Source: Escherichia phage naam
Sequence record: MN850630.1
Length of the DNA: 64,000 nt
Direction: 5' to 3' (one strand)
Of the stretch, positions 11,243 to 28,797 are shown piece after piece. Within the stretch, counting starts at the first letter, position 1. Each line of letters begins with the position of its first letter. The notes under the pieces were generated by a model. That model was not told the DNA's origin and did not search any database. It saw nothing but the letters and a program-made list of their open reading frames with translations. Made by a program: the position numbers and the translations under genes.

Positions 11243-11659
11243 ATGACATTAGAAGATATCATTGTTAAACCTGAGAACTATGACCAATACAACCTGTCAA
11301 CTCAATCTGTAGACCTTGGATGCGCCACGGTCAGTGCGTGGATGGTTAACGGAAAAGAGCTGGATAAATGCTTAGAAGCTCACATGTCTATTAACAAGTT
11401 TCTGGATGAAAATACTCACTGGCTTGAGGGTGCAGGTGTGTATGCTTCATGGTTGGAGAGTATGGGATTCGACTACCAATCTGAAGAGGGGTGGTGGAGC
11501 TATTTAGCTATCTGCCCAGAGACGCTGCAATGCTTCATGAAATATTCTGAAGATTTGGAGTACCGGGCGGTGGTTGATAGTGCTATTGCCCGTTATAGCC
11601 GTAAACCTTTTTCCCACGACATTAAAACTGTGGAAGAATTTGTTGAAGTTTTCTGTTGA
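11243..11659 (+). CDS. hypothetical protein
   Basis: 138 aa, TAAGGAGA RBS. Confidence 0.55.
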   Translation: MTLEDIIVKPENYDQYNLSTQSVDLGCATVSAWMVNGKELDKCLEAHMSINKFLDENTHWLEGAGVYASWLESMGFDYQSEEGWWSYLAICPETLQCFMKYSEDLEYRAVVDSAIARYSRKPFSHDIKTVEEFVEVFC

Positions 11660-11755
11660 CACAAGTTGAAAGGTGTGCAATTATAACTTCATAGAACGGG
11701 AGGACGTGATGAACGAAGAAAACTGGGATGTATAACTAACAGGAGGCCACTGCCC

Positions 11756-14395: not shown

Positions 14396-14724
14396 CAGAG
14401 ATCATCGTTTCAACTGCAGGGTATGTATTCCTGACAATCATTGCGTTGGCTATTCTGGTGGCGGTGTATGGATTTGTTATCCTGCCTATTCTTGAGACAT
14501 TTAGCTTGTGTCGGTGTTGGAGAAAAGCTTACGGACCACAACCGTGGAAAGACTGGTTTCATTTGGTGCGTATAGCGTTCTCTTATGCCTATGATCACTC
14601 CAGCAGTGCATGCGTAACCGGGTACCATGCCTACAACTGGAACTGGGAAGGGCTGGGGAGATGGACTGTTACAAAAACTATACCCTTACGGTTGTATAAA
14701 GGAAAGAACACACTGGGAGCCTGA
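14392..14724 (+). CDS. putative membrane protein
   Basis: 110 aa, hydrophobic N-terminal helix, AAGGGG RBS, ATGA overlap. Confidence 0.5.
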   Translation: MTEIIVSTAGYVFLTIIALAILVAVYGFVILPILETFSLCRCWRKAYGPQPWKDWFHLVRIAFSYAYDHSSSACVTGYHAYNWNWEGLGRWTVTKTIPLRLYKGKNTLGA

Positions 14725-14759
14725 TATTTTAAGTTATCAGGTTGCCAGAGATCAGGAGG

Positions 14760-15260
14760 ATTTCTAAAATGGATTTCCTCCTTTTGATATTTTACCTACC
14801 AGGATATTTTAAAATCCTTAGAAAATCAGAAAATGGATCGAAAACTAAAATGGATTTTTCAGAGCAGGCACGACGAGATGAACCACTCATCCTATCGTCT
14901 GCACCATATTCCAGACCACCATTACAGATTTCCCGCACATGCTCACACCCTTCTACTAGAACTTCCCCCACTTACCCTTGACCTTTTATAGTAATAATCC
15001 AACCACTACCTTGAAGTTGTGGCGCAGCTTTCCAAGTACTCGATCTGTTTTTCGTTTCAAAGATTGAATTTTCTGAAAATTTTTCTCGATAAATTTCTCA
15101 GTACTCGATCTGTTTTTCGTTTTCTGAATCGGATTTTCTGGAAATCGTTCCGGCTCTCGACCTGAAATTTTTGGGGACGAAATCGATTTTTCGTTTTCAG
15201 AAATGGATTTTTAAAATTTCTATATGGGAATATTTTAGTGGATACTATTTTATAGGAAAT
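14760..15260. repeat. AT-rich non-coding region with iteron-like direct repeats and palindromes
   Basis: AAATGGAT(T/C) four times; 23-nt direct repeat AGTACTCGATCTGTTTTTCGTTT at 15038 and 15100; palindromes ATTTTCTGAAAAT, AGGATATTTTAAAATCCT. Confidence 0.6.
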
Positions 15261-15358
15261 TGTTACGGAGGGTAATTAGCGTGCTAATTAAATTTATTAA
15301 ATGCGAGGAGTTCTCATTTAGAATTTTGAATGATAATCATTCTCGTTTGCAGAATAAC

Positions 15359-15400
15359 GGGCAGGCCCGGTGATTGTCTCCCGGCCCCTGTTGCCCCGGC
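15359..15400. repeat. GC-rich conserved hairpin element, copy 1
   Basis: GGCAGGCCCGGTGATTGTCTCCCGGCCCCTGTT; conserved core GGTG(A/G)TTGTCTCCC. Confidence 0.55.
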
Positions 15401-15498
15401 TTGTTATTATAGTATCACACAGGACAAAGAAGGCAAGGATTTTTTGCATAAATTTTTAAATGATAATGATAACCGTTCTCATTTTATGCAGCGCCCAT

Positions 15499-15535
15499 CC
15501 CCGGTGGTTGTCTCCCCCGTCACCGGTGCCTGCCG
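15499..15535. repeat. GC-rich conserved hairpin element, copy 2
   Basis: CCGGTGGTTGTCTCCCCCGTCACCGGTGCCTGCC; stem CCGGTG/CACCGG around TTGTCTCCC. Confidence 0.55.
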
Positions 15536-15737
15536 TCCTTTCGATAGGTATATTGTGCCACCTGGCGGGGCCGCTGTCAACACCTTTTCAAAAAATTTTT
15601 CTAACCTGATGCGCTAACCGTTGCAACCTGGCGGGGCCAGCCTGGCAGGACCTAACTGACCAGGTGGGAGAGGGTGAAATCTTGCAAACCTGGTAGGCCC
15701 ATGCTGTAGGGTAAACAATTGAAGAGGAGGTACAAAA

Positions 15738-15980
15738 ATGAAAGGTAATGCTACTCACCTGGGAAATGTAGCGATTAATGACGCTGAGGCTATCACCCTG
15801 GTTGAAAAGGCTATGGCGGGAGCGTTGGAACATAAAGAAGAGTACGAAAAAATGATGGTTAACCTGGCAGGGGCGGCGGCTGGAGAATTCTGCCCAAAAA
15901 ATAATTCTAACCAATGGTTGACAGCTCGGATAGTTCTGTTATTCTTATCCTCGCAAGGTGAACAACACCACACTAATTAA
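15738..15980 (+). CDS. hypothetical protein
   Basis: 80 aa, GAGGAGG RBS. Confidence 0.55.
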   Translation: MKGNATHLGNVAINDAEAITLVEKAMAGALEHKEEYEKMMVNLAGAAAGEFCPKNNSNQWLTARIVLLFLSSQGEQHHTN

Positions 15981-15997
15981 CAGAGAGGATAAAAATC

Positions 15998-16195
15998 ATG
16001 AACGCCTACGGAATTAAAGTACGTCGCAACACTCGCCAGGCCGTCACCGATCAAATGGTTTGCCAGGTGGACGTAACCATCAACAACGGGCAAGGCCTTT
16101 ATAAATTCCGTCGCGGTCAGAGCTATACCCGGCAACAGCTTAATCGTTGCGCCCTGACAAAAGGCCAGATCAACCACTGGTTTAATAAAAAATAA
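15998..16195 (+). CDS. small basic protein
   Basis: 65 aa, R/K-rich, AGAGGA RBS. Confidence 0.5.
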   Translation: MNAYGIKVRRNTRQAVTDQMVCQVDVTINNGQGLYKFRRGQSYTRQQLNRCALTKGQINHWFNKK

Positions 16196-16198
16196 GTA

Positions 16199-16227
16199 TT
16201 GACATATAGTCCGACACCAAATACACT
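16199..16227 (+). promoter_or_regulatory. sigma70-type promoter (TTGACA-17-TACACT)
   Basis: Read directly upstream of 16260 gene. Confidence 0.5.
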
Positions 16228-16259
16228 AAAAGCACAAAAGACACTAAGAGGATAAAATC

Positions 16260-16658
16260 ATGAAAACCACTACCTTTAATTTTGATAATGCGGACTTTTC
16301 TTTTTCTGATGTCAAGAACTGCCGCCGTGATCGTGGATTCTACAAGGCTTATAATCTGGTTGGCCTGGACGATGACAATAATTTGCACGAAGTAGCTGAG
16401 ATCCGGTATTATGCCGCCGCCAGCGGGAACACTCACTACTGCGTGTTTTGGATTCACGACAACAAGAACAATAAGTACGGTTATACTGGCGGCAAGGCGA
16501 GCGGTCACGGTTACGATAAAGCTAACGCAGCACTTGAGAGCGCATTAAATGCTATGGGGATCACTGCCGACGGCTGGATCTACGAAGAAGAGTTTTTGTC
16601 GGCACTTGCTGACCACCTGGGCTATAAAAAACACATTGTAACATGCGCCCACGAATAA
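16260..16658 (+). CDS. hypothetical protein
   Basis: 132 aa, AAGAGGA RBS. Confidence 0.6.
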   Translation: MKTTTFNFDNADFSFSDVKNCRRDRGFYKAYNLVGLDDDNNLHEVAEIRYYAAASGNTHYCVFWIHDNKNNKYGYTGGKASGHGYDKANAALESALNAMGITADGWIYEEEFLSALADHLGYKKHIVTCAHE

Positions 16659-16664
16659 AAATCA

Positions 16665-16692
16665 TTGACACGCTGCAAAATTTAAGTAAACT
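16665..16692 (+). promoter_or_regulatory. sigma70-type promoter (TTGACA / TAAACT)
   Basis: Read directly upstream of 16741 gene. Confidence 0.5.
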
Positions 16693-16740
16693 AGACACAA
16701 AAGGCGGGAATGTTTCCCGCCAGCACAAAGGAAAAAGATC

Positions 16741-17136
16741 ATGAATAAGAACGTACGCCGCATCATGAACGAACTGGCAAACGATGAAAAAATTATTGAT
16801 ATGCATTTGGTCAACATTTGCCGCCGTTGTGTAACATATAACAACCGCGCCGCAAAAGCGCGTGAGATGAACGCAAAAGGCACCTTAAAGCCCTTTCAGG
16901 TGGTTGTAAAATCTATAACTAGCGCAGCAGGCCAGGCGCAGGACCACAACAACGAGAGCGCTAATATTGATCCGTCTTACGTAATGAAACGGATCCGGAC
17001 TTGCAAGAATAAAGAGCAGGTATATAACGTCATAGATTGGCTGGACTCCCTGGGCGATGTGGTTTACAATAGGTTTTCTGCAGCTATCGAGATCCAGCTT
17101 GACAGATTGGACGGGAAAGTACTAAAAACTTATTGA
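16741..17136 (+). CDS. hypothetical protein
   Basis: 131 aa, AAAGGAAA RBS. Confidence 0.6.
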   Translation: MNKNVRRIMNELANDEKIIDMHLVNICRRCVTYNNRAAKAREMNAKGTLKPFQVVVKSITSAAGQAQDHNNESANIDPSYVMKRIRTCKNKEQVYNVIDWLDSLGDVVYNRFSAAIEIQLDRLDGKVLKTY

Positions 17137-17138
17137 GT

Positions 17139-17184
17139 TTATTTTTAGATGGCCTTGACACCAGGGCCATCAATAAAGTAAACT
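17139..17184 (+). promoter_or_regulatory. hairpin-embedded promoter element, copy a
   Basis: TTATTTTTA-GATGGCC-TTGACACCAG-GGCCATC-AATAAAGTAAACT; -35 TTGACA inside a 10-bp stem, TAAACT -10-like. Confidence 0.5.
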
Positions 17185-17216
17185 AACCACAGTTGAGCGG
17201 AAAAGGAGGCTTAAAG

Positions 17217-17336
17217 ATGAGCACTACACGCCAGCACACAAAGGTAACCATCATCGTTTGCATCATTGGGTACATCCTGGCGCAAATGTTGATGGGTAGC
17301 GCCAACGGTGTCGCAAAATTTTTCTTAAACTTTTAA
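17217..17336 (+). CDS. small membrane peptide (39 aa)
   Basis: AAAGGAGG RBS 6 nt before ATG; hydrophobic core; under track length cutoff. Confidence 0.4.
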   Translation: MSTTRQHTKVTIIVCIIGYILAQMLMGSANGVAKFFLNF

Positions 17337-17364
17337 TTGACAAGCTAACTTAAATCGATATAAT
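17337..17364 (+). promoter_or_regulatory. sigma70 consensus promoter (TTGACA-16-TATAAT)
   Basis: Read directly upstream of 17416 gene. Confidence 0.65.
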
Positions 17365-17415
17365 AAGCACATAAACGGGAAAACTTCCCAGAACACACAA
17401 AAGGAGAAAAACACC

Positions 17416-17757
17416 ATGACTACTATGACCGCCTCAGAAAAAGCTATGCAGATCGCTGAACTGAAAAAACAGATCGCAGACCTTGAGAATAAGATCGATA
17501 ACTTTGAAATCGACGAGGACAAGTACGACGAAAACTATGATGAATGGTTAGACGAGATCTACGGCGAAATTATGATCGGAAACATTTCTTTTCTTCCGTC
17601 GCGTATCCTCAAGGAGCTAGATCCTATCGCTTACCGCTGCGGATTTAGCGACTACATCGACAGCCTGGATATTGAGGACGATGAAGAATACCAGGAATTA
17701 CAGACAGAGTTAGAAGAAGCAAAAGAAGAGCTTGCGGAGCTGGAAGAAAACGAGTAA
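17416..17757 (+). CDS. hypothetical acidic coiled-coil protein
   Basis: 113 aa, AAGGAGAA RBS. Confidence 0.6.
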   Translation: MTTMTASEKAMQIAELKKQIADLENKIDNFEIDEDKYDENYDEWLDEIYGEIMIGNISFLPSRILKELDPIAYRCGFSDYIDSLDIEDDEEYQELQTELEEAKEELAELEENE

Positions 17758-17759
17758 GC

Positions 17760-17805
17760 TTATTTTTAGATGGCCTTGACACCAGGGCCATCAATAAAGT
17801 AAACT
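17760..17805 (+). promoter_or_regulatory. hairpin-embedded promoter element, copy b
   Basis: Identical 45-nt element to copy a. Confidence 0.5.
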
Positions 17806-17846
17806 TTATACTGTTAACACTGAACTAATGCATAGGAGTTAAAACC

Positions 17847-18092
17847 ATGGCAGCACTAATCACCAAATATTATGCCCCTACCAACACCAAAAGCGCCCGT
17901 ATCATGGTAAAAGGCTTCGGACGTAAAAAGGTGTACACCTGGGATTATGCCTTAGACACGGAAGACAACTACACCAACGCGATGACCGATTTTATTAATG
18001 ATCTGAACACGCGGATCTTGACAAATTATAAAATTACCGATATTGCCTATATAGGGGAAGGCGGGATCTGTTTTGTCGGTATCGTCAAATAA
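17847..18092 (+). CDS. hypothetical protein
   Basis: 81 aa, TAGGAG RBS. Confidence 0.55.
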   Translation: MAALITKYYAPTNTKSARIMVKGFGRKKVYTWDYALDTEDNYTNAMTDFINDLNTRILTNYKITDIAYIGEGGICFVGIVK

Positions 18093-18103
18093 GCTGTTTT
18101 TTC

Positions 18104-18127
18104 GGTGGTCCTGGTAGCAGGGCCATC
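18104..18127 (+). promoter_or_regulatory. degenerate copy of hairpin element
   Basis: GGTGGTCCTGGTAGCAGGGCCATC preceded by T-tract, followed by TATAAAGATAG. Confidence 0.3.
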
Positions 18128-18167
18128 TATAAAGATAGTTTATCAATACAATGAAAGGAGAAAGTAC

Positions 18168-18521
18168 ATGATCAGCGGGGCAAGTTTTATTATTGGCGCT
18201 ATTGCTACGGCTTTAATTGTAAACAAGATCCAATCTAAAAACGAAAAAGATAGCAACGCCCTTACAGAATACCCGTTTTGGGTATTCAACGACAATGAAG
18301 ACTATATTATCAAGTACAAGAATGAGAAGGGCGACCAGGTAACACCGCGACCGATCCCGGCTTACAAGATGCAAGAAACACTATACCGCCTAAAGGCTGG
18401 AGGCGCAAAAATCGTAGACTTTTGGGGATACGATCACACAGATCAGGAAGTTATAAAGCGCCGTATCCGGGCTATTCAGGCCAATATTGAAGTTAGCAAG
18501 GGGGGAATATATGAAGATTAA
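18168..18521 (+). CDS. putative membrane-anchored protein
   Basis: ATG 18168 after AAAGGAG; N-terminal hydrophobic helix. Confidence 0.55.
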   Translation: MISGASFIIGAIATALIVNKIQSKNEKDSNALTEYPFWVFNDNEDYIIKYKNEKGDQVTPRPIPAYKMQETLYRLKAGGAKIVDFWGYDHTDQEVIKRRIRAIQANIEVSKGGIYED

Positions 18522-18708
18522 TTTTGAGAAGATTGTAAAGCGATCTCATGATTCCGAAGAGCTGCCGGAACGCCGCCAGCGCAACAATAAACTGAATAAG
18601 CCAAAAAGATTTGGGAAGATCTGGCGGAATCATTATGATCGCAAATTACCGGGCCTGCTTTTGGAACGTGAACGACAGGCGGAACGATACCGCCACAAAG
18701 GCAAATAA
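18511..18708 (+). CDS. small basic protein
   Basis: ATG 18511 after AAGGGGGG; R/K-rich 65 aa. Confidence 0.5.
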   Translation: MKINFEKIVKRSHDSEELPERRQRNNKLNKPKRFGKIWRNHYDRKLPGLLLERERQAERYRHKGK

Positions 18709-18716
18709 CAACCAAC

Positions 18717-18742
18717 GCCCCGCCATTGTGCGGGGCTTTTTA
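18717..18742 (+). terminator. rho-independent terminator
   Basis: GCCCCGC-cattgt-GCGGGGC + TTTTT. Confidence 0.65.
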
Positions 18743-18879
18743 TTTCTATCCTACGAATAGCGCCCCTGGTTGGCCCTGTAAGCGCCAAAAAGGCCCCACC
18801 TATACAATCGCCCCCCTTTAACCTGAAAACATCGCTTAGGGCCGTTTTATGGCGTTAAAAATATCATTGACAGTGATTT

Positions 18880-18907
18880 TATTTAAAGCTTGACATCTTA
18901 AACAGGT
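18880..18907 (+). promoter_or_regulatory. sigma70-type promoter (TTGACA / TATACT), second TTGACA 23 nt upstream
   Basis: Read directly upstream of 18950 gene. Confidence 0.5.
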
Positions 18908-18949
18908 TAGCTATACTAACCACATCAAAGAGAGAAAGGAGTAAACGCC

Positions 18950-19210
18950 ATGCGTAAATTAAAAAATTTTGATAAAGTTGATGTTGTCCTGAATAATTTT
19001 TACTACTGCAACAACAAGGCCATTTGGTGGCGTGATAGTTCCACCGATAAAGTTAAAGCTCGCTTTCTCCAAGGGCACTGGCAAGGCCGTCCAGTGATTA
19101 AAATACTGGGGCAACTGGTAGCGTTTAAAAATTGCCGCCGTGTTGATGACGTTGAAGAGATCTTGAACATTTTACGCCACAATAATTTAAAAAATAGTGT
19201 TGACAAGTAA
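18950..19210 (+). CDS. hypothetical protein
   Basis: 86 aa, AAAGGAG RBS. Confidence 0.55.
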   Translation: MRKLKNFDKVDVVLNNFYYCNNKAIWWRDSSTDKVKARFLQGHWQGRPVIKILGQLVAFKNCRRVDDVEEILNILRHNNLKNSVDK

Positions 19211-19227
19211 ATCTCGATAAGTATACT
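19200..19227 (+). promoter_or_regulatory. sigma70-type promoter (TTGACA-16-TATACT)
   Basis: Read directly upstream of 19285 gene. Confidence 0.55.
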
Positions 19228-19284
19228 TAAACACACAGGCGGGAAAACTTCCCGCCACTAACAAAGAAAATAGGAGAAAATATC

Positions 19285-19908
19285 ATGACCACCGTTAACA
19301 TTACCACAGGTTACAATTTATCTTTCGACGTGCTGACCGACGAACAAAAAGAAAAAGCTATTGAAATGGTCCGCGAAAGAGAAGAACACAGCGGGGATAA
19401 TTTTTTTGCAGAAAGTGTAATTGAACACTATAAAGAATATGTCTTTCCAGAGTACGGCCTTGAAGATACCGAAGTACGTTGGTCCGGCTTTTGGTGTCAA
19501 GGCGATGGCGCGTCAATCAGTGCTGAAAACGTGGATTTAGAAAAATTCTTGCGTAAAGTAAAGGCCCTGACCAAGTTCCGATCAATTCGTCACTTGTTCG
19601 GCACAATGCACGATGGCGAGTTATCAGCCAGTGTTGAACGTATCCCGTTTAGCCATTATCATCACGAAAACACAATAGGAGGGTGCATCGATACTAATTG
19701 GCTAGACCTGACCACCAAGCAAGAGGACAAAGTTGAAGAGCTGGAAGAGCTGATCACCGAGACGGTACGGGAGCTATCACGCAAGGTTTACGTAGACCTG
19801 GAGGAGGCCTATCTTGAACAGTTTACTACCGAAAACCTGATCGGCCTTATTGAAGCCAATGATTGGCGGTTTGATGTGGATGAATATGGGGAGATGAGTT
19901 TTTCATAA
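19285..19908 (+). CDS. hypothetical protein
   Basis: 207 aa, TAGGAGAA RBS. Confidence 0.6.
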   Translation: MTTVNITTGYNLSFDVLTDEQKEKAIEMVREREEHSGDNFFAESVIEHYKEYVFPEYGLEDTEVRWSGFWCQGDGASISAENVDLEKFLRKVKALTKFRSIRHLFGTMHDGELSASVERIPFSHYHHENTIGGCIDTNWLDLTTKQEDKVEELEELITETVRELSRKVYVDLEEAYLEQFTTENLIGLIEANDWRFDVDEYGEMSFS

Positions 19909-19998
19909 ATAAAGTGTTGCAATAATCTAAAAACCTGCTATATTAAAAACTCAAGGGGCGAGATGACTTGCCCCCCACAAAACAAAGAGGAAAACATC

Positions 19999-20379
19999 AT
20001 GAAAAACACTACTAAAGCTATTGACACCGTTATGTTTAACCTGGTTACATTCCGTGAAGATATGAAAGATCTTCCACGTGAAACAGTGTGCGACCATATC
20101 GAAAACTATCGCAAACTAATCAAAGAGTTGCCTTTAAAACGTGACCAGTACGCGGCTAACGCTATGCTTAACGCCATGATCAAAAAGATGATCCAGTGTG
20201 ATTTAACTCTGGCCTATGATTATGCAGGCGGTCGTTTTGCAGTATACAATCAGCCCGTGCCCGGTATGAGCACCACCGAAGAATTGCACGCGTTAAATCT
20301 GAAACAAGATGTATGGGATAACATGCCCCGCGTGGTGGTGTGGGCAGAAAGCGGAAAGATTTACGGCGATAATTTTTAA
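19999..20379 (+). CDS. hypothetical protein
   Basis: ATG 19999 after AAAGAGGAAAA, in frame with track ORF 19963. Confidence 0.55.
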   Translation: MKNTTKAIDTVMFNLVTFREDMKDLPRETVCDHIENYRKLIKELPLKRDQYAANAMLNAMIKKMIQCDLTLAYDYAGGRFAVYNQPVPGMSTTEELHALNLKQDVWDNMPRVVVWAESGKIYGDNF

Positions 20380-20389
20380 TCAGGTAACA

Positions 20390-20415
20390 GGCGGCATATT
20401 TGCCGCCTTATTGTT
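20390..20415 (+). terminator. rho-independent terminator
   Basis: GGCGGC-atattt-GCCGCC + TTATTGTT. Confidence 0.5.
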
Positions 20416-20443
20416 AAACAGAACTGCAAAAGAGGTACATAGA

Positions 20444-20815
20444 ATGGAATTTATTATTTTGGCTGTAGTAGTTGCCTTGTTCAACGCCTGGATCGCTGGC
20501 AAGATGGGTAGATCCGCCTTTTTATGGTTTATTATATCTATTTTCCTGGGGGTGGTTGCAACTATTGTACTTGTTATCCTTGCAATTGTTGACAAGGGGA
20601 ATAATAGAAAGGGTAAAGTATTTTCAGACCTGTACGACGCTCAAACATTTGTCAACGCCTACTACAGCGATCTTCCAGTCTCCCTACGTTGCAGCCTTGC
20701 ACAACAGGTTTTCGATGAAGCTAAAACCAGAGATCACGCCCATGAGATTTGTTTAACTGAGGCGGATCGCCTATTTGAGAGGAATAGAAAATATGTGGAC
20801 CAGCCGTTTAAATAA
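20444..20815 (+). CDS. putative membrane protein
   Basis: ATG 20444 after AAGAGG; two predicted hydrophobic helices. Confidence 0.55.
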   Translation: MEFIILAVVVALFNAWIAGKMGRSAFLWFIISIFLGVVATIVLVILAIVDKGNNRKGKVFSDLYDAQTFVNAYYSDLPVSLRCSLAQQVFDEAKTRDHAHEICLTEADRLFERNRKYVDQPFK

Positions 20816-20925
20816 TGCCACGTTAATTAACCCCTTTAGTGAAGATTTGAAGCCAGCCGCCTGGCGGGATGGATTCAATAACGAAAGCTTTATTTTCAGG
20901 CCTGATCTTAAGGAATTTTATAACA

Positions 20926-21051
20926 ATGGATCGAACAACGACAGAGATAATTTTTCTTGTAATGTGCGTGGTGATAATACTCCTGGGGGCCATTGCAAAC
21001 CACGTCACTGCTAACAGGAGGAAAGGGGGAGACGATGACACCCAAGGATAA
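20926..21051 (+). CDS. small membrane peptide (41 aa)
   Basis: Hydrophobic helix then charged tail; AAGGA RBS about 11 nt upstream; alternative frame 20775..21014 not favoured. Confidence 0.35.
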   Translation: MDRTTTEIIFLVMCVVIILLGAIANHVTANRRKGGDDDTQG

Positions 21052-21154
21052 GCCCCGCACCGATAAGGCGCGCCGTGTTATGGTATGGCTTGAGATCATC
21101 GCCCTTGAAATATTGTTAGGCGTAGGGATGTATTTTATCGCTGTAAGTAACTGA
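21035..21154 (+). CDS. small membrane peptide (39 aa)
   Basis: CAGGAGGAAAGGGGG RBS; basic N-terminus then hydrophobic helix; followed by terminator. Confidence 0.4.
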   Translation: MTPKDKPRTDKARRVMVWLEIIALEILLGVGMYFIAVSN

Positions 21155-21168
21155 TAACGGCCCCGATC

Positions 21169-21200
21169 CCTGGGGCCTAACTTTTCAAATTTTTTTCTCC
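21169..21200 (+). terminator. rho-independent terminator
   Basis: GGCCCC-gatccct-GGGGCC followed by T-rich tract. Confidence 0.5.
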
Positions 21201-21294
21201 CTGAGTGTTGCAATCCGATCCAGAATATGGATAATAACAATCAACGGGGAGACACTCCCCACCGCATAGACAAAGTTCCAAAAGGAGAAACAAA

Positions 21295-21495
21295 ATGAGC
21301 AACAATATCCGCGTTATTAACTTCAAAAAAGAAGAAAAAATTGCCGTGCTGATTGACGGTCAAGAAATCTTTAAAGGTGATTATGAAGATCATCAAACGG
21401 CGATTAGTATCACTCGCGTGATTGGTTACCATAATTTTTACCCTCAAGGCGCTGAGGCAGCAGTAAAACGAATTAAAGAGATTGTAGGCCTGTAA
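21295..21495 (+). CDS. hypothetical protein
   Basis: 66 aa, AAAGGAGAA RBS. Confidence 0.55.
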   Translation: MSNNIRVINFKKEEKIAVLIDGQEIFKGDYEDHQTAISITRVIGYHNFYPQGAEAAVKRIKEIVGL

Positions 21496-21498
21496 AAT

Positions 21499-21544
21499 TT
21501 ATTTTTAGATGGCCTTGACTCCAGGGCCATCAATAAAGTAAATT
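21499..21544 (+). promoter_or_regulatory. hairpin-embedded promoter element, copy c
   Basis: Same element, TTGACT variant in loop. Confidence 0.5.
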
Positions 21545-21586
21545 TAAACCCTGTTAAAATAATCAGTGCAAAAAGGAGTAATGATC

Positions 21587-21886
21587 ATGTTTATCCAGGC
21601 TAATAATCTTTATTTCTTTGATGGTCAGATCGTAGACGGCGTGGAGGTGGAAATAACCGGGTGCCCTGGCGGTCAGGTTATGACTTTTCGGAATAATGCC
21701 TTTGATGATTCTCATATCGTTATGAGAATGGAAGTTAGTAAGCTGGATGACAAGAAAACACTTATCGACTATTCCGTCAAAGATCATCCAGACTACCACA
21801 TGATCTATGGTGATTTGTGCATTGTTGACCGTGACAAGGTGAACGGCATTGTTATAGCCATTGTGAACGATGTTTTCTCTGAATAA
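21587..21886 (+). CDS. hypothetical protein
   Basis: ATG 21587 eight nt after AAGGAG. Confidence 0.55.
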   Translation: MFIQANNLYFFDGQIVDGVEVEITGCPGGQVMTFRNNAFDDSHIVMRMEVSKLDDKKTLIDYSVKDHPDYHMIYGDLCIVDRDKVNGIVIAIVNDVFSE

Positions 21887-22110
21887 TTCCGGCAAATGAT
21901 GCAAAATAAGGCCCCTAGCAGGGCCTGCAGCGATATAATCACATAAAGGCTATGCGGTTGCATGGCCTTTATTATTTTAGCGTTACAGCGGCCCCAAGGC
22001 GCTTAAAAAATTTTTAAAGAAGTACTTGCATCAAGTCCTACAATATGGATAATAGGACGTGTCAGGGGGGCGGCCCCCAATCATTAACCGGATAGATAGG
22101 AGTTAAAATC

Positions 22111-22395
22111 ATGGCTATTGTCACCGTTGGCGATGTAGTGGAAATGGAAGCAAAATACTTAAAAGCGGGTATGCATATCCTACGGAATGATCAAGAATTG
22201 TTATTAACGATGGTAGACTATAATCCCGGCCAGGATTATCCAAGCATCGACTACTTTTTTGAGTATGTTGATGAAGAATTGAAAGAGGATGAGACTTATC
22301 AGGGTGAATTCTGCAATTTCTTTTGCCCTGATGAGGTTGTAAAAGTTATCTATCAACCTGGCGTACCTTTCCCGCTGCACGCTATCAATAAATAA
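22111..22395 (+). CDS. hypothetical protein
   Basis: 94 aa, TAGGAG RBS; GC hairpin after stop. Confidence 0.55.
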   Translation: MAIVTVGDVVEMEAKYLKAGMHILRNDQELLLTMVDYNPGQDYPSIDYFFEYVDEELKEDETYQGEFCNFFCPDEVVKVIYQPGVPFPLHAINK

Positions 22396-22457
22396 ACCTG
22401 GCGGGGCCGAAAAGGCCCCCGCCTGAAATTATGAAAAATAAAAAGAGGCAAACTATC

Positions 22458-22688
22458 ATGATGGAACAAATTAAACGCGCTGAGGCTATTAATGGCAATG
22501 TGATCTATTTTGTCAGCAATAACGAAAAAGGCGTACCATATGCGGCGGTAATAGTACAGCCTGACGGCAATTATTGGTTTACTGTATACGGATCTTATTC
22601 TTTCGGGCGTCCGGTGCATGATAGAATTTTAAAAGTAGCGAACCCAACCGGGAAGAATATCACAGCAGAAAAATTTTTTGAAAAATAG
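22458..22688 (+). CDS. hypothetical protein
   Basis: ATG 22458 after AAGAGG. Confidence 0.5.
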   Translation: MMEQIKRAEAINGNVIYFVSNNEKGVPYAAVIVQPDGNYWFTVYGSYSFGRPVHDRILKVANPTGKNITAEKFFEK

Positions 22689-22716
22689 TTGACATGGCCT
22701 TATAAGACTGTAGAAT
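22689..22716 (+). promoter_or_regulatory. sigma70-type promoter (TTGACA-16-TAGAAT)
   Basis: Read directly upstream of 22764 gene. Confidence 0.55.
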
Positions 22717-22763
22717 ATAAATCAAAGGGGCAAGCCCCATCAACGGCAAAGAGGATAAAAATC

Positions 22764-22943
22764 ATGGCTATTATTGCAAAGACTGAGATCGTAGGCTTAG
22801 ATTCTATTCTCCTCGCATATGAGGAAGCTATAGAAATGTATGTGGTTTCCTATGGTGAGTATATCCGTGAATATAAATCTATTGATCTGGCTTTTGAATG
22901 TTATATTCGCCAGGTTAATAAAGCGTACGATGATTATCGTTAA
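22764..22943 (+). CDS. hypothetical protein (59 aa)
   Basis: ATG 22764 after AAGAGGATAAAA, downstream of promoter. Confidence 0.45.
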   Translation: MAIIAKTEIVGLDSILLAYEEAIEMYVVSYGEYIREYKSIDLAFECYIRQVNKAYDDYR

Positions 22944-23034
22944 AATAGTTTGACAACAAACAACCATCTAACAAAGCATAACACATAAGGTGGTAGAATG
23001 ATCCGCCACCTGGAACAAAGAAGAGGTAAACACC

Positions 23035-23280
23035 ATGAAAAGCAATAAAGGTTATAACGGTTACAAAAACAAAACTCATTGGAATGTAAGCCTTTGGATT
23101 AATAACGATGAGTCCTTGTACCGGTTGGCCCAAGGCTTTATTAACGCTAATGCTAATCGTAATGATGCGGCGCGGGATATGATGCTTTTTCTGGAGCTAA
23201 CCGGACAAGATAAGACCCCGGACGGCTTCAAGTACAGCACTACGGCGATCCGTGCCGCGATGGTTGGAATGAAACACTAA
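23035..23280 (+). CDS. hypothetical protein
   Basis: 81 aa, AAGAGG RBS. Confidence 0.55.
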   Translation: MKSNKGYNGYKNKTHWNVSLWINNDESLYRLAQGFINANANRNDAARDMMLFLELTGQDKTPDGFKYSTTAIRAAMVGMKH

Positions 23281-23357
23281 AAGCACATAGCCGCCTTACC
23301 CTGGGGCTGTAGTAGCGGTCCCATGAATAAGGTTACTAACAGAAGAGAATAAACACC

Positions 23358-23462
23358 ATGAAACAGAAATTAATTGATGCGGTGATCCTGGTTATTGCCC
23401 TGGGTATTGGCCTGATTGCAACCATGGCTAATGTGATCTTGTCTTCCAACGGTATCGGGTGA
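23358..23462 (+). CDS. small membrane peptide (34 aa)
   Basis: AGAAGAGAA RBS; single hydrophobic helix. Confidence 0.4.
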   Translation: MKQKLIDAVILVIALGIGLIATMANVILSSNGIG

Positions 23463-23471
23463 GGTTGGCAA

Positions 23472-23687
23472 ATGATCACTAACAAAACAGGCAAAACGGA
23501 ATTTTTACGCAACTTACAGATCGGCAAGCCTGAGATCTGGTATTGCACTAAAACACCACGTGACGAAATGAAAGACTTCACCGCCACGCTGCAACGGGTA
23601 AAGATATCCATCACGCAGAAAAAGGCCTTATTAGTGGTGGAAGGTGAGATCCCCCAAACCGTTGTTATAGTTGAACGTACAGCATAG
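23472..23687 (+). CDS. hypothetical protein
   Basis: 71 aa, GAGG RBS. Confidence 0.45.
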   Translation: MITNKTGKTEFLRNLQIGKPEIWYCTKTPRDEMKDFTATLQRVKISITQKKALLVVEGEIPQTVVIVERTA

Positions 23688-23778
23688 TTTAATTTATACC
23701 GATACCTGAAAATTAACCAACAAGGCATAAACAGGCTGTTACCGCCGCCTTAAACGTAGCAGAAAGAGGATAGACACA

Positions 23779-24063
23779 ATGAAAAAGATGATCGCAGTGG
23801 TTGCCCTGGTTGTTGGACTTAATGCGCCTGTAATGGCTAAAGAGCTGGCAAAAGAGGTTAATCTAACGGATATTCATGCCGTCAATCGAATCGGGGTTAC
23901 TTATCGCTTATGCCTTGCCGCTAAAACTTTTAAGGACGGCACGACAGAGTACTACGGATTCGAGGGTGTCCGGTGCGGTGAACTTGCTCGCGACCTTAAG
24001 GAAGATCCAGACCTGGAGGATCTGCCCATCACCGTAAACGGGAAAACTTACGTAAACCGTTAA
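23779..24063 (+). CDS. putative secreted protein (signal peptide)
   Basis: N-terminus MKKMIAVVALVVGLNAPVMA signal-peptide-like; AAAGAGGA RBS. Confidence 0.55.
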   Translation: MKKMIAVVALVVGLNAPVMAKELAKEVNLTDIHAVNRIGVTYRLCLAAKTFKDGTTEYYGFEGVRCGELARDLKEDPDLEDLPITVNGKTYVNR

Positions 24064-24065
24064 CC

Positions 24066-24200
24066 ATGAGAAAGATAATTATTACCATGGGGATCGTGGC
24101 GGCAATGTTGGCGATCTTTCCCTTTATGGTTAGGTATGTGCTGATTAATGTTGTCCTGGTAGTCAGCGATCTGGTGTTATATATTAACTCATTGTTTTAG
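24066..24200 (+). CDS. small membrane peptide (44 aa)
   Basis: Hydrophobic; weak RBS. Confidence 0.3.
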   Translation: MRKIIITMGIVAAMLAIFPFMVRYVLINVVLVVSDLVLYINSLF

Positions 24201-24208
24201 GCGCGATA

Positions 24209-24400
24209 ATGACAGCGGAAGAAGTTAAAAAAGTACTGGCGGTACTGCGTTATCATAATCATTGCAAGGTGAAGAATGATCCTGATTATCTTGATTCATC
24301 CCTTGAAGAGGATACACTACAAGCCATAAGCAACATGCAAGAATTGCTTAAGCGTATGACAGAGAAAAACCGACCGGACTACATAGGGGGTAAAATATGA
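24209..24400 (+). CDS. hypothetical protein
   Basis: 63 aa ORF; weak RBS. Confidence 0.45.
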   Translation: MTAEEVKKVLAVLRYHNHCKVKNDPDYLDSSLEEDTLQAISNMQELLKRMTEKNRPDYIGGKI

Positions 24401-24708
24401 TCGCTATTACGCCAACCGTTTTAGATTGGTATCGGCAACGCATAGCGCCTCCGCTGGCTATCTTCAAAGATGCGGAAGCAAAACAACGCCGGATCTCAAT
24501 ACATGAGATCATCAACCTTAACGCTGGAGGCACACCATACCGCCCAGGACCTGGCCGTGAGATGGACAATACGTTAGCGATCCTGAAGATACGCCGTAAA
24601 CGGTCCTCCCTTACGCTGGACTCATTACACACAATGCAGCCTCCGTTCCAGGTGACCGGGAAACGGATCGCCAGGTCCTGGACAAAGGCCAATGATCGGA
24701 CCGTATAA
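24397..24708 (+). CDS. hypothetical protein
   Basis: 103 aa, ATGA overlap, GGGGG RBS. Confidence 0.5.
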   Translation: MIAITPTVLDWYRQRIAPPLAIFKDAEAKQRRISIHEIINLNAGGTPYRPGPGREMDNTLAILKIRRKRSSLTLDSLHTMQPPFQVTGKRIARSWTKANDRTV

Positions 24709-24794
24709 ATAAAAGTGTTTTGGTACTGATTTTGGGGTTGACTTGTTCGGCCCCTTTTGCTATTCTTATTAAACGGGCGGCACTTGGGAACAGG

Positions 24795-24817
24795 GGGAGA
24801 CAATCACCAGGCCTGCC
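24795..24817. repeat. GC-rich conserved element, copy 3 (inverted relative to copies 1-2)
   Basis: GGGAGACAATCACCAGGCCTGCC is reverse complement of copy-1 core with one mismatch. Confidence 0.55.
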
Positions 24818-24842
24818 TGTCATATAAGAACTATAAAAACCG

Positions 24843-24871
24843 TTGACATCTGCCATGGGGTGAGGTAACAT
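24843..24871 (+). promoter_or_regulatory. sigma70-type promoter (TTGACA-17-TAACAT)
   Basis: Read directly upstream of 24926 gene. Confidence 0.5.
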
Positions 24872-24925
24872 TTATCTTGAAGGGGCAAAAGTGCCCACAC
24901 AACAACCAGAAGAGAGGAAAACATT

Positions 24926-25198
24926 ATGTCAAGCTGGATTAATCAAGAAGTCGAATCACGTTTTAATGCTATTTGGGATCTCATCGAAAAAGAGGACGGA
25001 ACATCAAGCCCTTATCTCAATAATCTTGAATTCCATTTCGTGGAAGCGATGAACGCAGAACATGATCACGAAGGTGGTGCGGATGAATTCGCTAAAGGAT
25101 ATGGCTTCAACAATGCCAACGAAATGATCGAGGCGGTTGTACTCCAGGCTGAGGAAGATTATCAATTAAAAACGCTTGAATTCTGCCGCCGTAAGTAA
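24926..25198 (+). CDS. hypothetical acidic protein
   Basis: 90 aa, AGAGAGGAAAA RBS. Confidence 0.55.
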   Translation: MSSWINQEVESRFNAIWDLIEKEDGTSSPYLNNLEFHFVEAMNAEHDHEGGADEFAKGYGFNNANEMIEAVVLQAEEDYQLKTLEFCRRK

Positions 25199-25260
25199 TA
25201 AGATAATGACACGGGCCAAAAGGCCCACTAAACAAAAACCACATAAAGAGGAAAAACATC

Positions 25261-25524
25261 ATGAAACGCCTTGATCAGCTCAAATTAGTTCAATATATGG
25301 CTTATCGTGTTCTTGAAGTCCAGAAAGGTAGCAAAAAAGAGGTTTGCGAGAAAGCTTATAAGATCTTCACTCGCAAAAAAGATGACTGGATGCTACGCCA
25401 GACCAAAAAGGCTGACATCTTGGGGTACCTGGAAGAAGAGATCCGCCTTGAAGAGCAAGAAGAGATCCGCCGTAGTGAGGCAGATTATCAGGCAGCTTGG
25501 GAAAACTGGATGAGCAACAAATAA
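25261..25524 (+). CDS. hypothetical protein
   Basis: 87 aa, AAAGAGGAAAAA RBS. Confidence 0.55.
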   Translation: MKRLDQLKLVQYMAYRVLEVQKGSKKEVCEKAYKIFTRKKDDWMLRQTKKADILGYLEEEIRLEEQEEIRRSEADYQAAWENWMSNK

Positions 25525-25590
25525 TACAACAAGTTACGGTCAGGGGGGTAATAAAGCCCCTTGATCGCATAAAAATTATGCCATCTCTGG

Positions 25591-25619
25591 TTGACAGGGA
25601 TCGGCAGTTTTGCTATATT
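25591..25619 (+). promoter_or_regulatory. sigma70-type promoter (TTGACA-17-TATATT)
   Basis: Read directly upstream of 25669 gene. Confidence 0.55.
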
Positions 25620-25668
25620 CTTTTTTGAAGGGAAGTTGTAAGAAAATTAACTAAGAGGTAAAAACACC

Positions 25669-26088
25669 ATGAACATTAAATCTAATAATCCGGCATATAG
25701 CTTTGATAACGCTTTTTGTCACGGTCCGGCGGCGAAAGGATTCGAAATCGATGGTAAACTAATTATTGTCAATGTTGACGGGGAAGAGGTTGCAGTATAT
25801 CCGGTGGCAGACGTAAAAAGCCGTTTACAATGCCGCATGGATGTTACCGCCTATCAGCTTGATCCGGTCCGCATAGTTGCCCTGGTCCTGGAAGAAGAAA
25901 TTAAAGCCATGCACCATAGCAACAGATTTATTGGTGACGCGCAGGATAATATGAAAGTATGCCGCCATAAAGTTAATGAAGTGCTTAAAGAGTACGGCTA
26001 TAAAGATCTTATGATCAAACGTGAGGAAAAATTCCGCTACCGTAACGACCTGGCAAATCGGATTTTTGAAATATACGAATCATTATAA
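25669..26088 (+). CDS. hypothetical protein
   Basis: 139 aa, AAGAGG RBS; last gene of plus-strand block. Confidence 0.6.
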   Translation: MNIKSNNPAYSFDNAFCHGPAAKGFEIDGKLIIVNVDGEEVAVYPVADVKSRLQCRMDVTAYQLDPVRIVALVLEEEIKAMHHSNRFIGDAQDNMKVCRHKVNEVLKEYGYKDLMIKREEKFRYRNDLANRIFEIYESL

Positions 26089-26106
26089 TTTTTTAACTGA
26101 ATTATC

Positions 26107-26132
26107 AAGGGGCTTAGGCCCCTTTCTTTTTG
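26107..26132 (+). terminator. rho-independent terminator
   Basis: AAGGGGC-ttag-GCCCCTT + TCTTTTTG. Confidence 0.65.
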
Positions 26133-26135
26133 TCT

Positions 26136-28580
26136 GCTCTTCCCCCTACCATAAACGGCCCTACCTGGCAAGTGGAATAATTGACGAGCCATCAATCCTA
26201 CACACTGTACAAACATACATGTAAAATAGCTATTGCATAACCTTTCATTGTGTGGTAGCGGTGCTATTTTTTACCAGTTTTCCTTCCAAAATTGCACGTA
26301 ATGCCGCTATTGCACAAATTTTAACCTGATGCACATCTCCAATATCTTGTCAACAACTAAAAATCTTTATAAGTCATACACTTACACAGCATCGAAAGCG
26401 TGTTCTACGCGAAAAATCGAGTATAACTATAGCCGCCAGATCTCAGAATTCACGTACGCACGCCATTCTATAGCCTGCAAAGTATTTATTCCAACCACAG
26501 AATAACGGAATAGTCAATACCTGCATAAAATAATTATTAGTGTAAACTGCATAACATAAATCAGCTCAGGTGTCAACATTTTTCGTAAACAGTCCGAAAT
26601 TATCACGATGAGTTATCATAAACAGAGAAATCTTTAGTCGTCTAATGTTTACTGTACATTACTATACTGACTGGAATCATTAGATGACTAAGAGAAAGAT
26701 AAGAAATAATTAATAATGTAATTGTTTTACCTGTAACAATAAGGCAACTATGCAAACGAATGGCATGGCGCGACGGAGTCGCGACATAATATAAAAGCAG
26801 TAACCATCACCCCCGTGATAGTTTGTCTGCAATCTATTAATCAGATCATAGTTGCCTTGTATTCAGTTAATCATGACATGATAAGCAAGGCAACTATAGA
26901 TCTTCTAATAGTTGCCCTGCTTTTATATTATGTCATAGAAACACCCGAAGGGGTGACCAAAGGTCACCTGGCATAGCCAGTGAAAGATTATTAACTTGCT
27001 AATAGTTATCATGCAAACGAATGGCATGGCTGATTATCGGTGTGTAAACAGTCAATCATGTAAATGGTTAGCATGTGAACAATCAGAAATGTAAACAATC
27101 CAGTGTGTAAACTAATAGGTGTGTAAAAGTGTCATGTTGTGTCAGTTAGGTCACATTATGTCAGACAAGTTTTTCTCCTCTTTGTCAAGTGCTGCATGAA
27201 AAATTTACAAGCTTGTATGGTAGCATTTTTGCGGCCCTGTTTACATTCAGTGTTGTATGTATAATCCTTGTTGTGTGGGCGTTTAGACGTCTGGACGGTC
27301 AGAAGTCTGCAGGTTAATATCTAATCTATCGGCTGCTAACTATATCCCACACAAATAGTAAGAAATATAATTGTTATGTGCGTAAACAGTAACCCATGTT
27401 ATCAATCCCTGTATGTATCGCCAGTGGTGCGCATAATGGGTATTATGTTAAATTGCCCGTAATGATAACAGTTCTCACAATGATAGGTATTCTCATTCAC
27501 CCCCACAAGATAGGTTGCAAATGTTGTGCCACTGTGTGAACGGCCTGGCCTATTAATTTGCCTCACTGCCTTGATATTTGAGAATTATTATAAGAATGAG
27601 AAGTATTCCCATTTCGTCCGCCTGGCAGCACTCCTGTAGGTCAGGTCAAAATCGTGGTAGAACTAGACCTATCCGGATATTTCTGGCTGACTCTTCAGGT
27701 CTGTGTGGGAAAAGCCAACCTCTCCGGCGGGGCAGGGGGAGGTCAATTAAAAAATTTACGTGGTGTATGAAGCGCTCTTCAGGTAAGGCAGGTATTATGG
27801 GATGAAACCCGCTTCAGGCAATGATATTTGTGGGTGTGATATTTGCTGGAAGGCCAGATATGACGGGACTCCCGGCGGGGCAGGGGTAGTACAGACAGGG
27901 AAAATATGGGGATGTAGTTGGGGAAATTGATCAGACAGGTAGAGTATGGAATATGTTACAGGTATGTTAAATATGGAGGTTGAATATCTGTAGGATTTGT
28001 GTGTAAAATCAAAGACTTAAGGGGTGTTGTGGTATTTTCTATAAATAATTCAAGTTTAATAGGCAATATTTGTCTCTATCCGCTTTGTGTGGTAAACAGA
28101 TTCAGATGAGATTGGTTTACAAGTGTATACATAATATACAAATTAAAGATACAAGAAACCCCCCTCCCCCTTCGGCTACCATTCACCTTTTCCTCTGACT
28201 GGTACTTAAACACTTATTCAGACTCTTCAGGTTATCACCCATATATCATATGGCAGTGACTGGTGTCCTCCGGCCCCTCTTTCGTCACCCGTCCGCTTCG
28301 CCATGCTAATGCCATAGCTAATGGTTCGGTTGTTCACCCTGTTCACTCAGGTGTATCTCTATACCCCTTCAAACCGAAGAGAACAGAAAACCCGAATTAC
28401 TCGGTAAAAGAAAAGAGAAGAACTTAATTTTATCAGGATAGGCAAGAATGTCAAGGCATGACTGCTCACTAAACAAGCAAACAGTCATGTGTGGGAGGTA
28501 AGTGATTGTGGTGGTAGGAAATTTAGTTGAAAGATGTGTTATAGGTGCTTCCAGCACTTTAGCCGGGCAGCTAATTGTGT
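26136..28580. other. repeat-dense non-coding region between convergent gene blocks
   Basis: No convincing ORF; direct and inverted repeats, GTGTAAAC-like motif cluster, GC-rich direct repeats. Confidence 0.6.
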
Positions 28581-28581
28581 G

Positions 28582-28797
28582 TCAGTCCAGCGGTTCATCC
28601 TCTACTTCACTGAAATCAATGTTCATGGTCTCTTCCCAACCATCGATCTCAGCACAAGAGTGGAGTTCTTTAGGGTTTACTCCCAAAGCCTCAGCAACAG
28701 AGTCTATATTTAACACCTCTGGCAGGTATGATTCATCGAATTCAAGGTAAATCAGGCCACGAGTGTTGTCAGCTCCACCAAATATCTCTATCTTCAT
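28582..28797 (-). CDS. small acidic protein
   Basis: 71 aa, GAGGAG RBS. Confidence 0.5.
   Translation of the reverse strand: MKIEIFGGADNTRGLIYLEFDESYLPEVLNIDSVAEALGVNPKELHSCAEIDGWEETMNIDFSEVEDEPLD

Follow-up and report, generated by a model that had tools for sequence, protein, structure and literature searches.

Three copies of a GC-rich element occur in the 64,000-nt stretch of DNA analysed here (the window), two of them near 15.4 kb (copies 1 and 2) and one near 24.8 kb (copy 3), and we hold, with moderate confidence, that they are three paralogous promoter-leader cassettes under shared post-initiation control which feed two non-coding regions. Judging from its place behind a predicted promoter, the GC-rich element is most likely the first ~50 nt of a transcript. 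By sequence comparison, the window is DNA of an rV5-like Vequintavirus, and the strand shown corresponds to the reverse complement of Murica as deposited. Megablast with positions 14500-26000 returned inoa, rV5 and FV3 among the relatives at 92-95% identity and 94-100% query cover, and 66 nt around copy 3 showed 100% identity to Murica and LL12. Genes for rIIB, helicases and DNA polymerase are found at 1-14 kb of the window, small ORFs without known function fill 15.7-26 kb, and the region at 26.1-28.6 kb, on which gene clusters of both strands converge, is almost without ORFs. Many of the GenBank records MG0656xx, labelled 'Campylobacter phage' (UNVERIFIED), are plainly Vequintavirus or Justusliebigvirus coliphage genomes.

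We found that the 23-mer of copy 1 (GGCAGGCCCGGTGATTGTCTCCC, 15360-15382, plus strand) recurs in copy 3 as its reverse complement (24795-24817, minus strand) with a single mismatch, C to T, just as the first-pass annotation of this DNA had reported, while 0.00 such matches were expected from 100 dinucleotide-preserving shuffles. A repeat search extended the pair to 29 nt with 90% complementarity and 9412 nt between the arms, and confirmed that the 15.4 and 24.8 kb copies are in inverted orientation. The shared CTGTT(G/C)CC described beside the match is present in both copies, but out of register by a 4-nt indel (copy 1, GTCTCCCGGCCCCTGTTGCC; copy 3, GTCTCCCCCTGTTCCC). Copy 2 has only a core of ~17 nt in common with the others. 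Searched with up to 4 mismatches, this 17-nt core gave three matches in the window and as many in the complete Murica genome (135,391 bp), at the same three places, and the sequence-only profile R1 (69 positions, built from the 22 aligned units of alignment A1) found only the same three copies in the window and in Murica at E values up to 10 (copy 3, 62 bits, E 1.5e-17; copy 1, 57.8 bits; copy 2, 33 bits). Scatter over many unrelated positions had been named as the observation that would speak against the element, and a complete genome, that of Murica, held three copies only. The repeat element is real, rare and not dispersed. On our reading it is merely what shows of a promoter-plus-leader cassette of ~100 nt. 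A search for a host origin gave no blastn match in 5,426 E. coli genomes, an IMG/VR scan with the 14-mer GGTGATTGTCTCCC gave chance matches only, in unrelated contigs, and the element is unmentioned both in the literature searched, on Fur boxes, small RNAs, start sites and terminal repeats of these phages, and in the published rV5 and phiTE descriptions. The copies do flank the small-ORF block at 15.7-24.7 kb that they were said to bracket, but the block runs on past copy 3: three plus-strand ORFs of the same kind (24926-26088) lie beyond it, so copy 3 is not the true block end.

The unit was found in six or more genera, which belong to two subfamilies, the Vequintavirinae and the Stephanstirmvirinae. 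When the non-coding DNA at 14990-15740 was searched with blastn, only 15293-15400, comprising the palindrome and copy 1, was matched beyond the genus; the matches were to Certrevirus (phiTE, CR8), Seunavirus (GEC_vB_MG, EC152), Mydovirus (Mydo, BIS47) and the unclassified W70 and ABPH49 among the Vequintavirinae, and to Phapecoctavirus anhysbys and UP17 among the Stephanstirmvirinae. Justusliebigvirus (L024) also carries a c1-type unit, which was located directly, and homologues of copy 3 were found in Justusliebigvirus, Phapecoctavirus, Mydovirus, Seunavirus and Cronobacter phages. All 22 units of A1, c1-, c2- and c3-type together, aligned over ~70 nt, with GGTG and TT invariant in every unit and AATRAC-RGGCA before the 12-mer nearly invariant. 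Ten of 11 rV5-like genomes share the same 12-mer, A141 differing by one substitution, and both flanks of the 12-mer vary. Among nine rV5-likes, the non-coding stretch at 15069-15590 showed an identity of 0.95-1.0, compared with 0.66-0.85 in the flanking ORFs.

The anatomy of the cassette, like its conservation, is seen directly in these alignments. A sigma70-type promoter sequence ended 25-31 nt before the 12-mer, on the GAGACAATCACC strand, in 21 of 22 units, a count that measures conservation and not significance since the units are homologous and not independent trials. P_c3, the promoter predicted for copy 3, and 21 of 22 homologous units have the sequence of a sigma70-dependent promoter, with an invariant TTG, a 16-18 nt spacer and TAnnnT, TG-extended in 15 of 22. 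Sequences passing the thresholds applied (a score of at least 7/12, A2 and T6 in the -10 hexamer, TTG in the -35 hexamer and a spacer of 16-18 nt) were found at only 12% of random window positions. Across the relatives, the promoter hexamers hold their position while the sequence between and around them gets replaced. The score of P_c3 was reached by 0.2% of shuffles in the same distance window; weaker scores, 7-8/12, were obtained for copy 1, anhysbys and A141. A promoter homologous to P_c1 was present in 12 of 12 c1-type units examined, and P_c2 aligned with a conserved TTGACA-17-TATACT promoter of other genera. Copy 2 is the 22nd unit: its 10/12 promoter lies 37 nt before the 12-mer, a distance that we count against the cassette model. 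The -35 hexamer of copy 3 sits within the loop of the hairpin at 24734-24754, and the same layout occurs in rV5, FV3, KPP-1 and EC152 with different hairpin sequences. Moreover, the T-tract/-10 box of copy 3 doubles as the U-tract of this upstream terminator, so that part of the conservation of the box has another cause.

Other readings of the conserved motifs were rejected. The GGTG...GTCTC strand, read as a -35-less, activator-dependent promoter, gave a varied spacing of 24-34 nt between the 12-mer and the -10-like box, and the downstream alignment showed that this box and the conserved 'CAAGCG', read from the opposite strand as TAnnnT and TTGnnn, respectively, with 16-18 nt between them, make up a full promoter. 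Resemblances to sigma54, sigmaE, sigma32, CRP and Pho box sequences, as well as to the DnaA box, IHF, Tus/Ter and T7 class II signals, failed at essential positions when inspected by eye.

Table 1. Coordinates of the cassette parts and of neighbouring features in the window; the last two lines refer to related genomes.
Feature	Position	Strand	Basis or remark
Three ~65-bp tandem repeats, TACTCGATCTGTTTTTCGTTT...	15026..15211	.	Repeat search; P_c1 and P_c2 aim into this region
Fur-box-like palindromes TGCGAGGAGTTCTCA, TGATAATCATTCTCG	15303..15345	.	Downstream of copy-1 leader
Copy 1, predicted leader	15353..15402	-	12-mer at 15369-15380; R1, A1
Predicted P_c1: TTGCCT-16 nt-TG-extended TACTAT (TGaTACTAT)	15409..15436	-	Start near 15402
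Fur-box-like palindromes	15461..15481	.	Downstream of copy-2 leader
Copy 2, predicted leader	15487..15545	-	12-mer variant GGTGGTTGTCTC at 15503-15514; R1
Predicted P_c2: TTGACA-17 nt-TG-extended CACAAT	15552..15580	-	Promoter scan; start near 15545
Terminator-like hairpin GGGGTTGACTTGTTCGGCCCC	24734..24754	+	Terminator scan; 3' of ORF 24397-24708
Predicted P_c3: TTGACT-17 nt-TG-extended TATTCT	24738..24766	+	Promoter scan; start near 24773
Copy 3, predicted leader ACGGGCGGCACTTGGGAACAGGGGGAGACAATCACCAGGCCTGCCTGTCATATA	24773..24826	+	Best R1 match; A1
12-mer GAGACAATCACC (GGTGATTGTCTC on the other strand)	24797..24808	+	~+25 to +36; A1
Second conserved box TGCCTGTCATAT, family consensus TGCCYGYYATTC	24814..24825	+	A1
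Tandem promoter TTGACA-17 nt-TAACAT (P168 of rV5)	24843..24871	+	Promoter scan; rV5 annotation
Four of the same palindromes, second cluster	27463..27611	.	ORF-poor 26.1-28.6 kb, downstream of copy 3
~200-nt block	L025/L034 (EC152) ~380-560; L003 ~1600-1790; L004 ~1640-1810		
~200-nt block	L009, L010, L011, L012, L013, L014, L024		Also present

We propose that each cassette would consist of a host sigma70-type promoter (TTGnnn, 16-18 nt, TAnnnT, usually TG-extended), a transcript start ~7 nt past the -10 hexamer, and a ~50-nt GC-rich initial transcribed region made up of GAGACAAWCACC, five G/C-rich bases and then TGCCYGYYATTC; promoters and start sites are predicted from the consensus. The 12-mer would fall at ~+20 to +36 of the leader and TGCCYGYYATTC at ~+40 to +50. 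Fur-box-like palindromes would come next in copies 1 and 2 only, at ~+55 to +85 and thus downstream of the predicted start; after copy 3 only a degenerate palindrome remnant is left. Copies 1 and 2 are predicted to fire leftward, opposite to all genes within 26 kb and into the non-coding region with the iterons, where their transcripts would run through the palindromes, an AT-rich stretch and the three 65-bp repeats. Copy 3 is predicted to fire rightward, in the same sense as its neighbour genes, and its transcription would pass through the element and P168, the predicted target of which is ORF 24926-25198, into ORF 24926 and toward 26.1-28.6 kb. The copies would be mutually inverted because their promoters diverge from the small-ORF block, and the three transcripts would share one sequence, not complementary ones. 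The function we infer for the shared leader is that of a common recognition signal, read in the DNA or in the nascent RNA by a putative sequence-specific factor, which would put the three transcripts under joint post-initiation control by roadblock, pausing, antitermination or processing; the cassettes would deliver regulated transcription into two large non-coding regions. Paired sites for a regulator were one of three suggestions in the first-pass annotation, beside recombination or inversion sites and the boundaries of an exchangeable module, and are the most reasonable of them.

We then compared the layout of the units in other genera. A c1-type unit at 10143 (+) and a c3-type unit at 20033 (-) lie 9.9 kb apart in Justusliebigvirus L024, with collinear homologous ORFs between them and with the predicted directions of the window, c1 leftward and c3 rightward. 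The c1- and c3-type units of Seunavirus EC152 and Mydovirus Mydo are direct, 11-12 kb apart, so the function of the family cannot depend on inverted geometry. In EC152 both units are predicted to fire leftward, c1 at 0.3 kb and the c3-type unit at 12.3 kb, the latter into 1.6 kb of ORF-free, palindrome-bearing DNA. The c3-type promoter of KPP-1 points at an ORF-free region, with the terminal repeat, reported as 514 bp (PMC9862379), 217 nt downstream. The c1-type unit was always aimed against gene flow into an ORF-free, iteron-bearing region. On these predicted promoters, the constant feature is that they are aimed at or toward two large non-coding regions, and not the inversion. EC152 also has a third, weaker unit, cX (25 bits; 8828-8896, minus in the GGTG...GTCTC-strand orientation, ~8.85 kb), which is located within the early region of this Seunavirus, has a palindrome and a promoter of its own, is predicted to read rightward and is inverted relative to the EC152 c1 unit 8.5 kb away.

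Rfam gave no match at the gathering threshold over the whole window and none at E up to 1 over the three elements. RNAalifold found no consensus structure on either strand, for the 22 units or for the c1 and c3 types separately, the consensus energy of the 22 units together being -1.0 or weaker on either strand, and the leader folds had no extra stability over shuffled sequences (z +0.1 to -1.7). Given the lack of a consensus structure and the ordinary fold stability, the recognition signal looks like primary sequence. Single-sequence folds of the c1 and c3 types differ, and a conserved hairpin with the 12-mer in its loop was rejected for this reason as well as for an uncompensated GG-to-CC flank change and the negative RNAalifold result. 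A G-quadruplex or R-loop leader was dropped because G-clusters are absent in several genera, and the likeness to ToxI or pseudo-ToxI of phiTE was, by eye, limited to GGTGATTTG. A small ORF, TGRPGDCLP, in both copies was also rejected, as its frames, stops and indels disagree. ORF 15330-15617 (plus strand, 95 codons), annotated as rV5 ORF198, Murica gp179 and FV3_00182, covers copies 1 and 2 in different frames. Reading the frames by hand, we found that in-frame stops interrupt the unit in anhysbys and Mydo, that rV5 copy 3 and the 12-mer of Mydo carry indels of 1-2 nt, and that the small ORF over the copies has no Shine-Dalgarno sequence. As a correction to the annotation, the ORFs over copies 1 and 2 (ORF198, gp179 and FV3_00182) are probably not genes, and an artefact of stop-poor GC-rich DNA.

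The main rival to the cassette model, which we regard as unlikely, is that a replication or packaging protein binds the 12-mer units as DNA sites, in a bipartite cis system in the style of satellite phage P4 with its ori and crr, where one protein serves two distant loci; the promoters would then be incidental, or else origin-activating or primer promoters. The replication gene module is followed directly by 520 bp of non-coding DNA, more conserved than the neighbour genes, in which copies 1 and 2 lie together with 65-bp iterons and an AT-rich segment; the c3-type units adjoin the second large region without ORFs, the one where the terminal repeat of KPP-1 is found. Consistent with such a site, the motif is asymmetric and invariant with varying flanks, and the orientation and distance of the units vary among genera, a variation that P4 crr tolerates. 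However, each unit holds a single 12-mer and not an array of the P4 ori/crr type, while origin-binding proteins usually need arrays, and the G-richness of the leader that R-loop priming needs is absent in KPP-1, EC152 c3 and Mydo. For this group of phages there is no mapped origin or terminus, and the published accounts of its genome ends, which also weigh against this rival, conflict: the rV5 and phiTE genomes were reported as circularly permuted (PMC3606486, PMC3475682), whereas KPP-1 and BME3 were reported to have short terminal repeats (PMC9862379, PMC12210895).

Both non-coding regions carry repeats and palindromes. Each 65-bp tandem repeat at 15026-15211 contains CTCGATC or ATCGAT, and the same place is taken by seven GGGTCTCGATC repeats in phiTE and by GGTTCTCGATCG repeats in EC152; these are GATC-containing iterons, and the phage encodes several DNA methyltransferases. 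In several genera, the palindromes, with the consensus AATGAGAATnATTCTCATT, form clusters nowhere else than in the two large non-coding regions; in EC152 they are found at 256-299 and 10787-11730, and in KPP-1 inside the reported terminal repeat. The palindrome beside copy 1, AATGATAATCATTCTC, matches 15/19 positions of GATAATGATAATCATTATC, the consensus of the Fur boxes of Enterobacteria (our own count), and the palindrome at 15327-15345 matches 13/14 positions of the Fur 7-1-7 form TGATAATnATTATCA, with the family consensus differing at the third hexamer position. The window contained 24 occurrences of the 7-1-7 form TGATAATNATTATCA when up to 3 mismatches were allowed, compared with 5.7 expected; the TGAGAATnATTCTCA form of the family consensus alone showed no enrichment in the window (9 against 5.6 expected). 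Unlike Fur boxes, the palindrome consensus TGAGAATnATTCTCA has G/C where Fur prefers T/A, and the palindromes are placed at +55 to +85 and not over the promoter. Judged by their sequence, these palindromes might serve host Fur or, equally possibly, act as operators for a protein of the phage.

We give little credence to a broader proposal, in which the three cassettes, as host-polymerase promoters sharing one leader, are the transcriptional inputs of an undescribed circuit common to Vequintavirinae and Stephanstirmvirinae. If true, possibly iron/Fur-gated transcription into the iteron and terminal-repeat regions would license replication initiation and/or genome end formation, and the 12-mer would be the site of a putative phage factor. 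The region at 26100-28600 is a candidate for the site of genome ends or pac: it holds repeated TGTAAAC motifs (27040-27130) and CCGGCGGGGCAGGGG pairs (27726, 27873), the GenBank records of several relatives begin within it, and the breakpoint of the bov10K2 record, in which no repeat marking genome ends was found, corresponds to window ~27,625. Beside the c1 unit, a non-coding block of ~200 nt is conserved across the two subfamilies. It contains an invariant 31-mer, GTTAGCCCCGCCTTTTCGCCGTGGGGTGGCG, and paired TCTTTACA repeats, and is preceded on the minus strand by the near-consensus promoter with which P_c2 of the window aligns; in the rV5-likes, copy 2 occupies its place. This block may be an undescribed non-coding RNA.

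It is improbable, in our judgement, that the elements are transcription stop or insulator signals, that is, irregular GC-rich hairpins with U-rich tracts which would face transcription coming in from either side and shield the early block from read-through. Copy 1 read in the other sense forms an imperfect GC-rich hairpin followed by CUUGUUAUUAU, an 11-nt piece of the phiTE unit is labelled 'terminator' in its GenBank record, and flanking transcription converges on the block in the rV5-likes. However, the stems are irregular, lack covariation and do not exceed shuffled sequences in stability (z -0.26 to -1.8). The units of phiTE, anhysbys and GEC have no U-tract, and three plus-strand genes follow copy 3, which is therefore not at a boundary. 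Real terminators in the window are canonical perfect hairpins with T-runs; the terminator scan found no intrinsic terminator in the elements and reported only the neighbouring hairpin at 24734-24754.

Still less probable is that the copies yield complementary pairing RNAs, with a copy-1 small RNA acting on the part of an mRNA that holds copy 3, or a long-range duplex that RNase III would cut. Plus-strand RNAs from both loci would be complementary at 22 of 23 positions, and at 23 of 23 in phages C12 and D#. The conserved promoters, however, give each copy its own sense, which would make the RNAs identical, and the candidate plus-strand promoter upstream of copy 1 is without the key A at -11 in phiTE and Mydo. 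Moreover, c1 and c3 of Justusliebigvirus share only the 12-mer, with 3 differences, and direct units, as in EC152 and Mydo, also tell against pairing.

Recombination or inversion sites, as suggested in the first-pass annotation, were not borne out: at least 80% of 14500-26000, a query that covers both copies, lay in one place and on one strand in 57 records. No inverted isomer of 15.4-24.8 kb was seen among the records listed, and the comparison with related phages that had been suggested gave no insertion or deletion of the block among them either; the top 30 records cover 91-100% of the query 14500-26000. The boundary of an exchangeable module holds in the limited sense that copy 3 is a mosaic junction, but not in the sense of a block gained or lost among these records. 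At least four unrelated sequences occur to the left of copy 3 among eleven rV5-likes, homology returns at its T-tract/-10 box, and the sequence rightward is near-identical in the eleven. Each locus has the same pair of 5'-flank alleles, CAGGCC and CACCCC, and the two loci agree within 8 of 9 genomes, which are related; this concordance is not significant (Fisher p ~0.08, our own calculation). The 3' half of copy 3 is copy-1-like in some genomes and copy-2-like in others. The alleles and this 3' half suggest occasional ectopic conversion, statistically not significant. As in Hin/Gin/Cin-type systems, inverted sites flank a segment, but neither two orientations in the 57 records nor a recombinase gene in ten ORFs was found; the ten were the five ORFs immediately upstream of copy 1, the block's first ORF and four that lie at copy 3 or beyond it, and they gave no Pfam match of any kind, hence none to a recombinase domain. 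Least credible of all is a reading of the copies as crossover sites, at which the 9.4-kb block would undergo site-specific or homologous inversion, or exchange. In its favour, the pair is inverted, 23-29 nt long and unique in the genome, with flank alleles shared between the loci, a 3' half of either kind and a mosaic breakpoint at copy 3; against it, the records listed hold neither isomer nor block indel, the units of EC152 and Mydo are direct, the ten ORFs scanned near the copies are without Pfam match and the allele concordance is not significant.

The rV5-like and phi92/phAPEC8-like phages are common broad-host-range coliphages that are used in therapy cocktails, and next to nothing of their origins, genome ends and temporal control has been mapped. 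The cassette model describes a ~100-nt cassette conserved amid mostly diverged non-coding DNA, 2-3 copies of which are aimed at two big non-coding regions, and it offers as handles three predicted start sites, one 12-mer and one palindrome family. The finding would be ordinary if the cassettes are merely early promoters with a stabilising leader.

Promoters that fire into iteron-bearing or AT-rich DNA beside replication genes recall T4 oriF/oriG, ColE1 RNA II and T7 phi1.1A/B, and the same motif at two loci kilobases apart recalls P4 ori/crr; the cassettes differ from these in having a single motif per unit and a G-richness that is not universal. The nutL/nutR signals of lambda and putL/putR of HK022 are, like the predicted leader, short conserved signals just downstream of early promoters; they occur one per operon, hence in opposite map orientations, and act on the transcribing polymerase. 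By this analogy antitermination is one possible reading of the leader, which differs in being without boxA/boxB-like sequence, conserved stem-loops or an identified N-like protein. The PeSL (promoter-early stem-loop) cassettes of T4-type phages, reportedly described by Arbiol et al. 2010, combine a sigma70 early promoter with a stem-loop and are repeated among small early ORFs at mosaic junctions, and copy 3 is like them in having its -35 in a terminator loop and in sitting at a homology breakpoint. The window also contains a four-copy 49-nt repeat (17136-17184, 17757-17805, 18092-18140 and 21496-21544), in which the loop of a GATGGCC..GGCCATC stem-loop contains TTGACA and TAAACT comes next; the repeat precedes small ORFs and is a clear family of the PeSL kind. 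In contrast to PeSL, the conserved part of the three cassettes is a ~50-nt predicted leader with the 12-mer, kept in two subfamilies and present in only three copies here, two of which are predicted to fire against gene flow into non-coding DNA.
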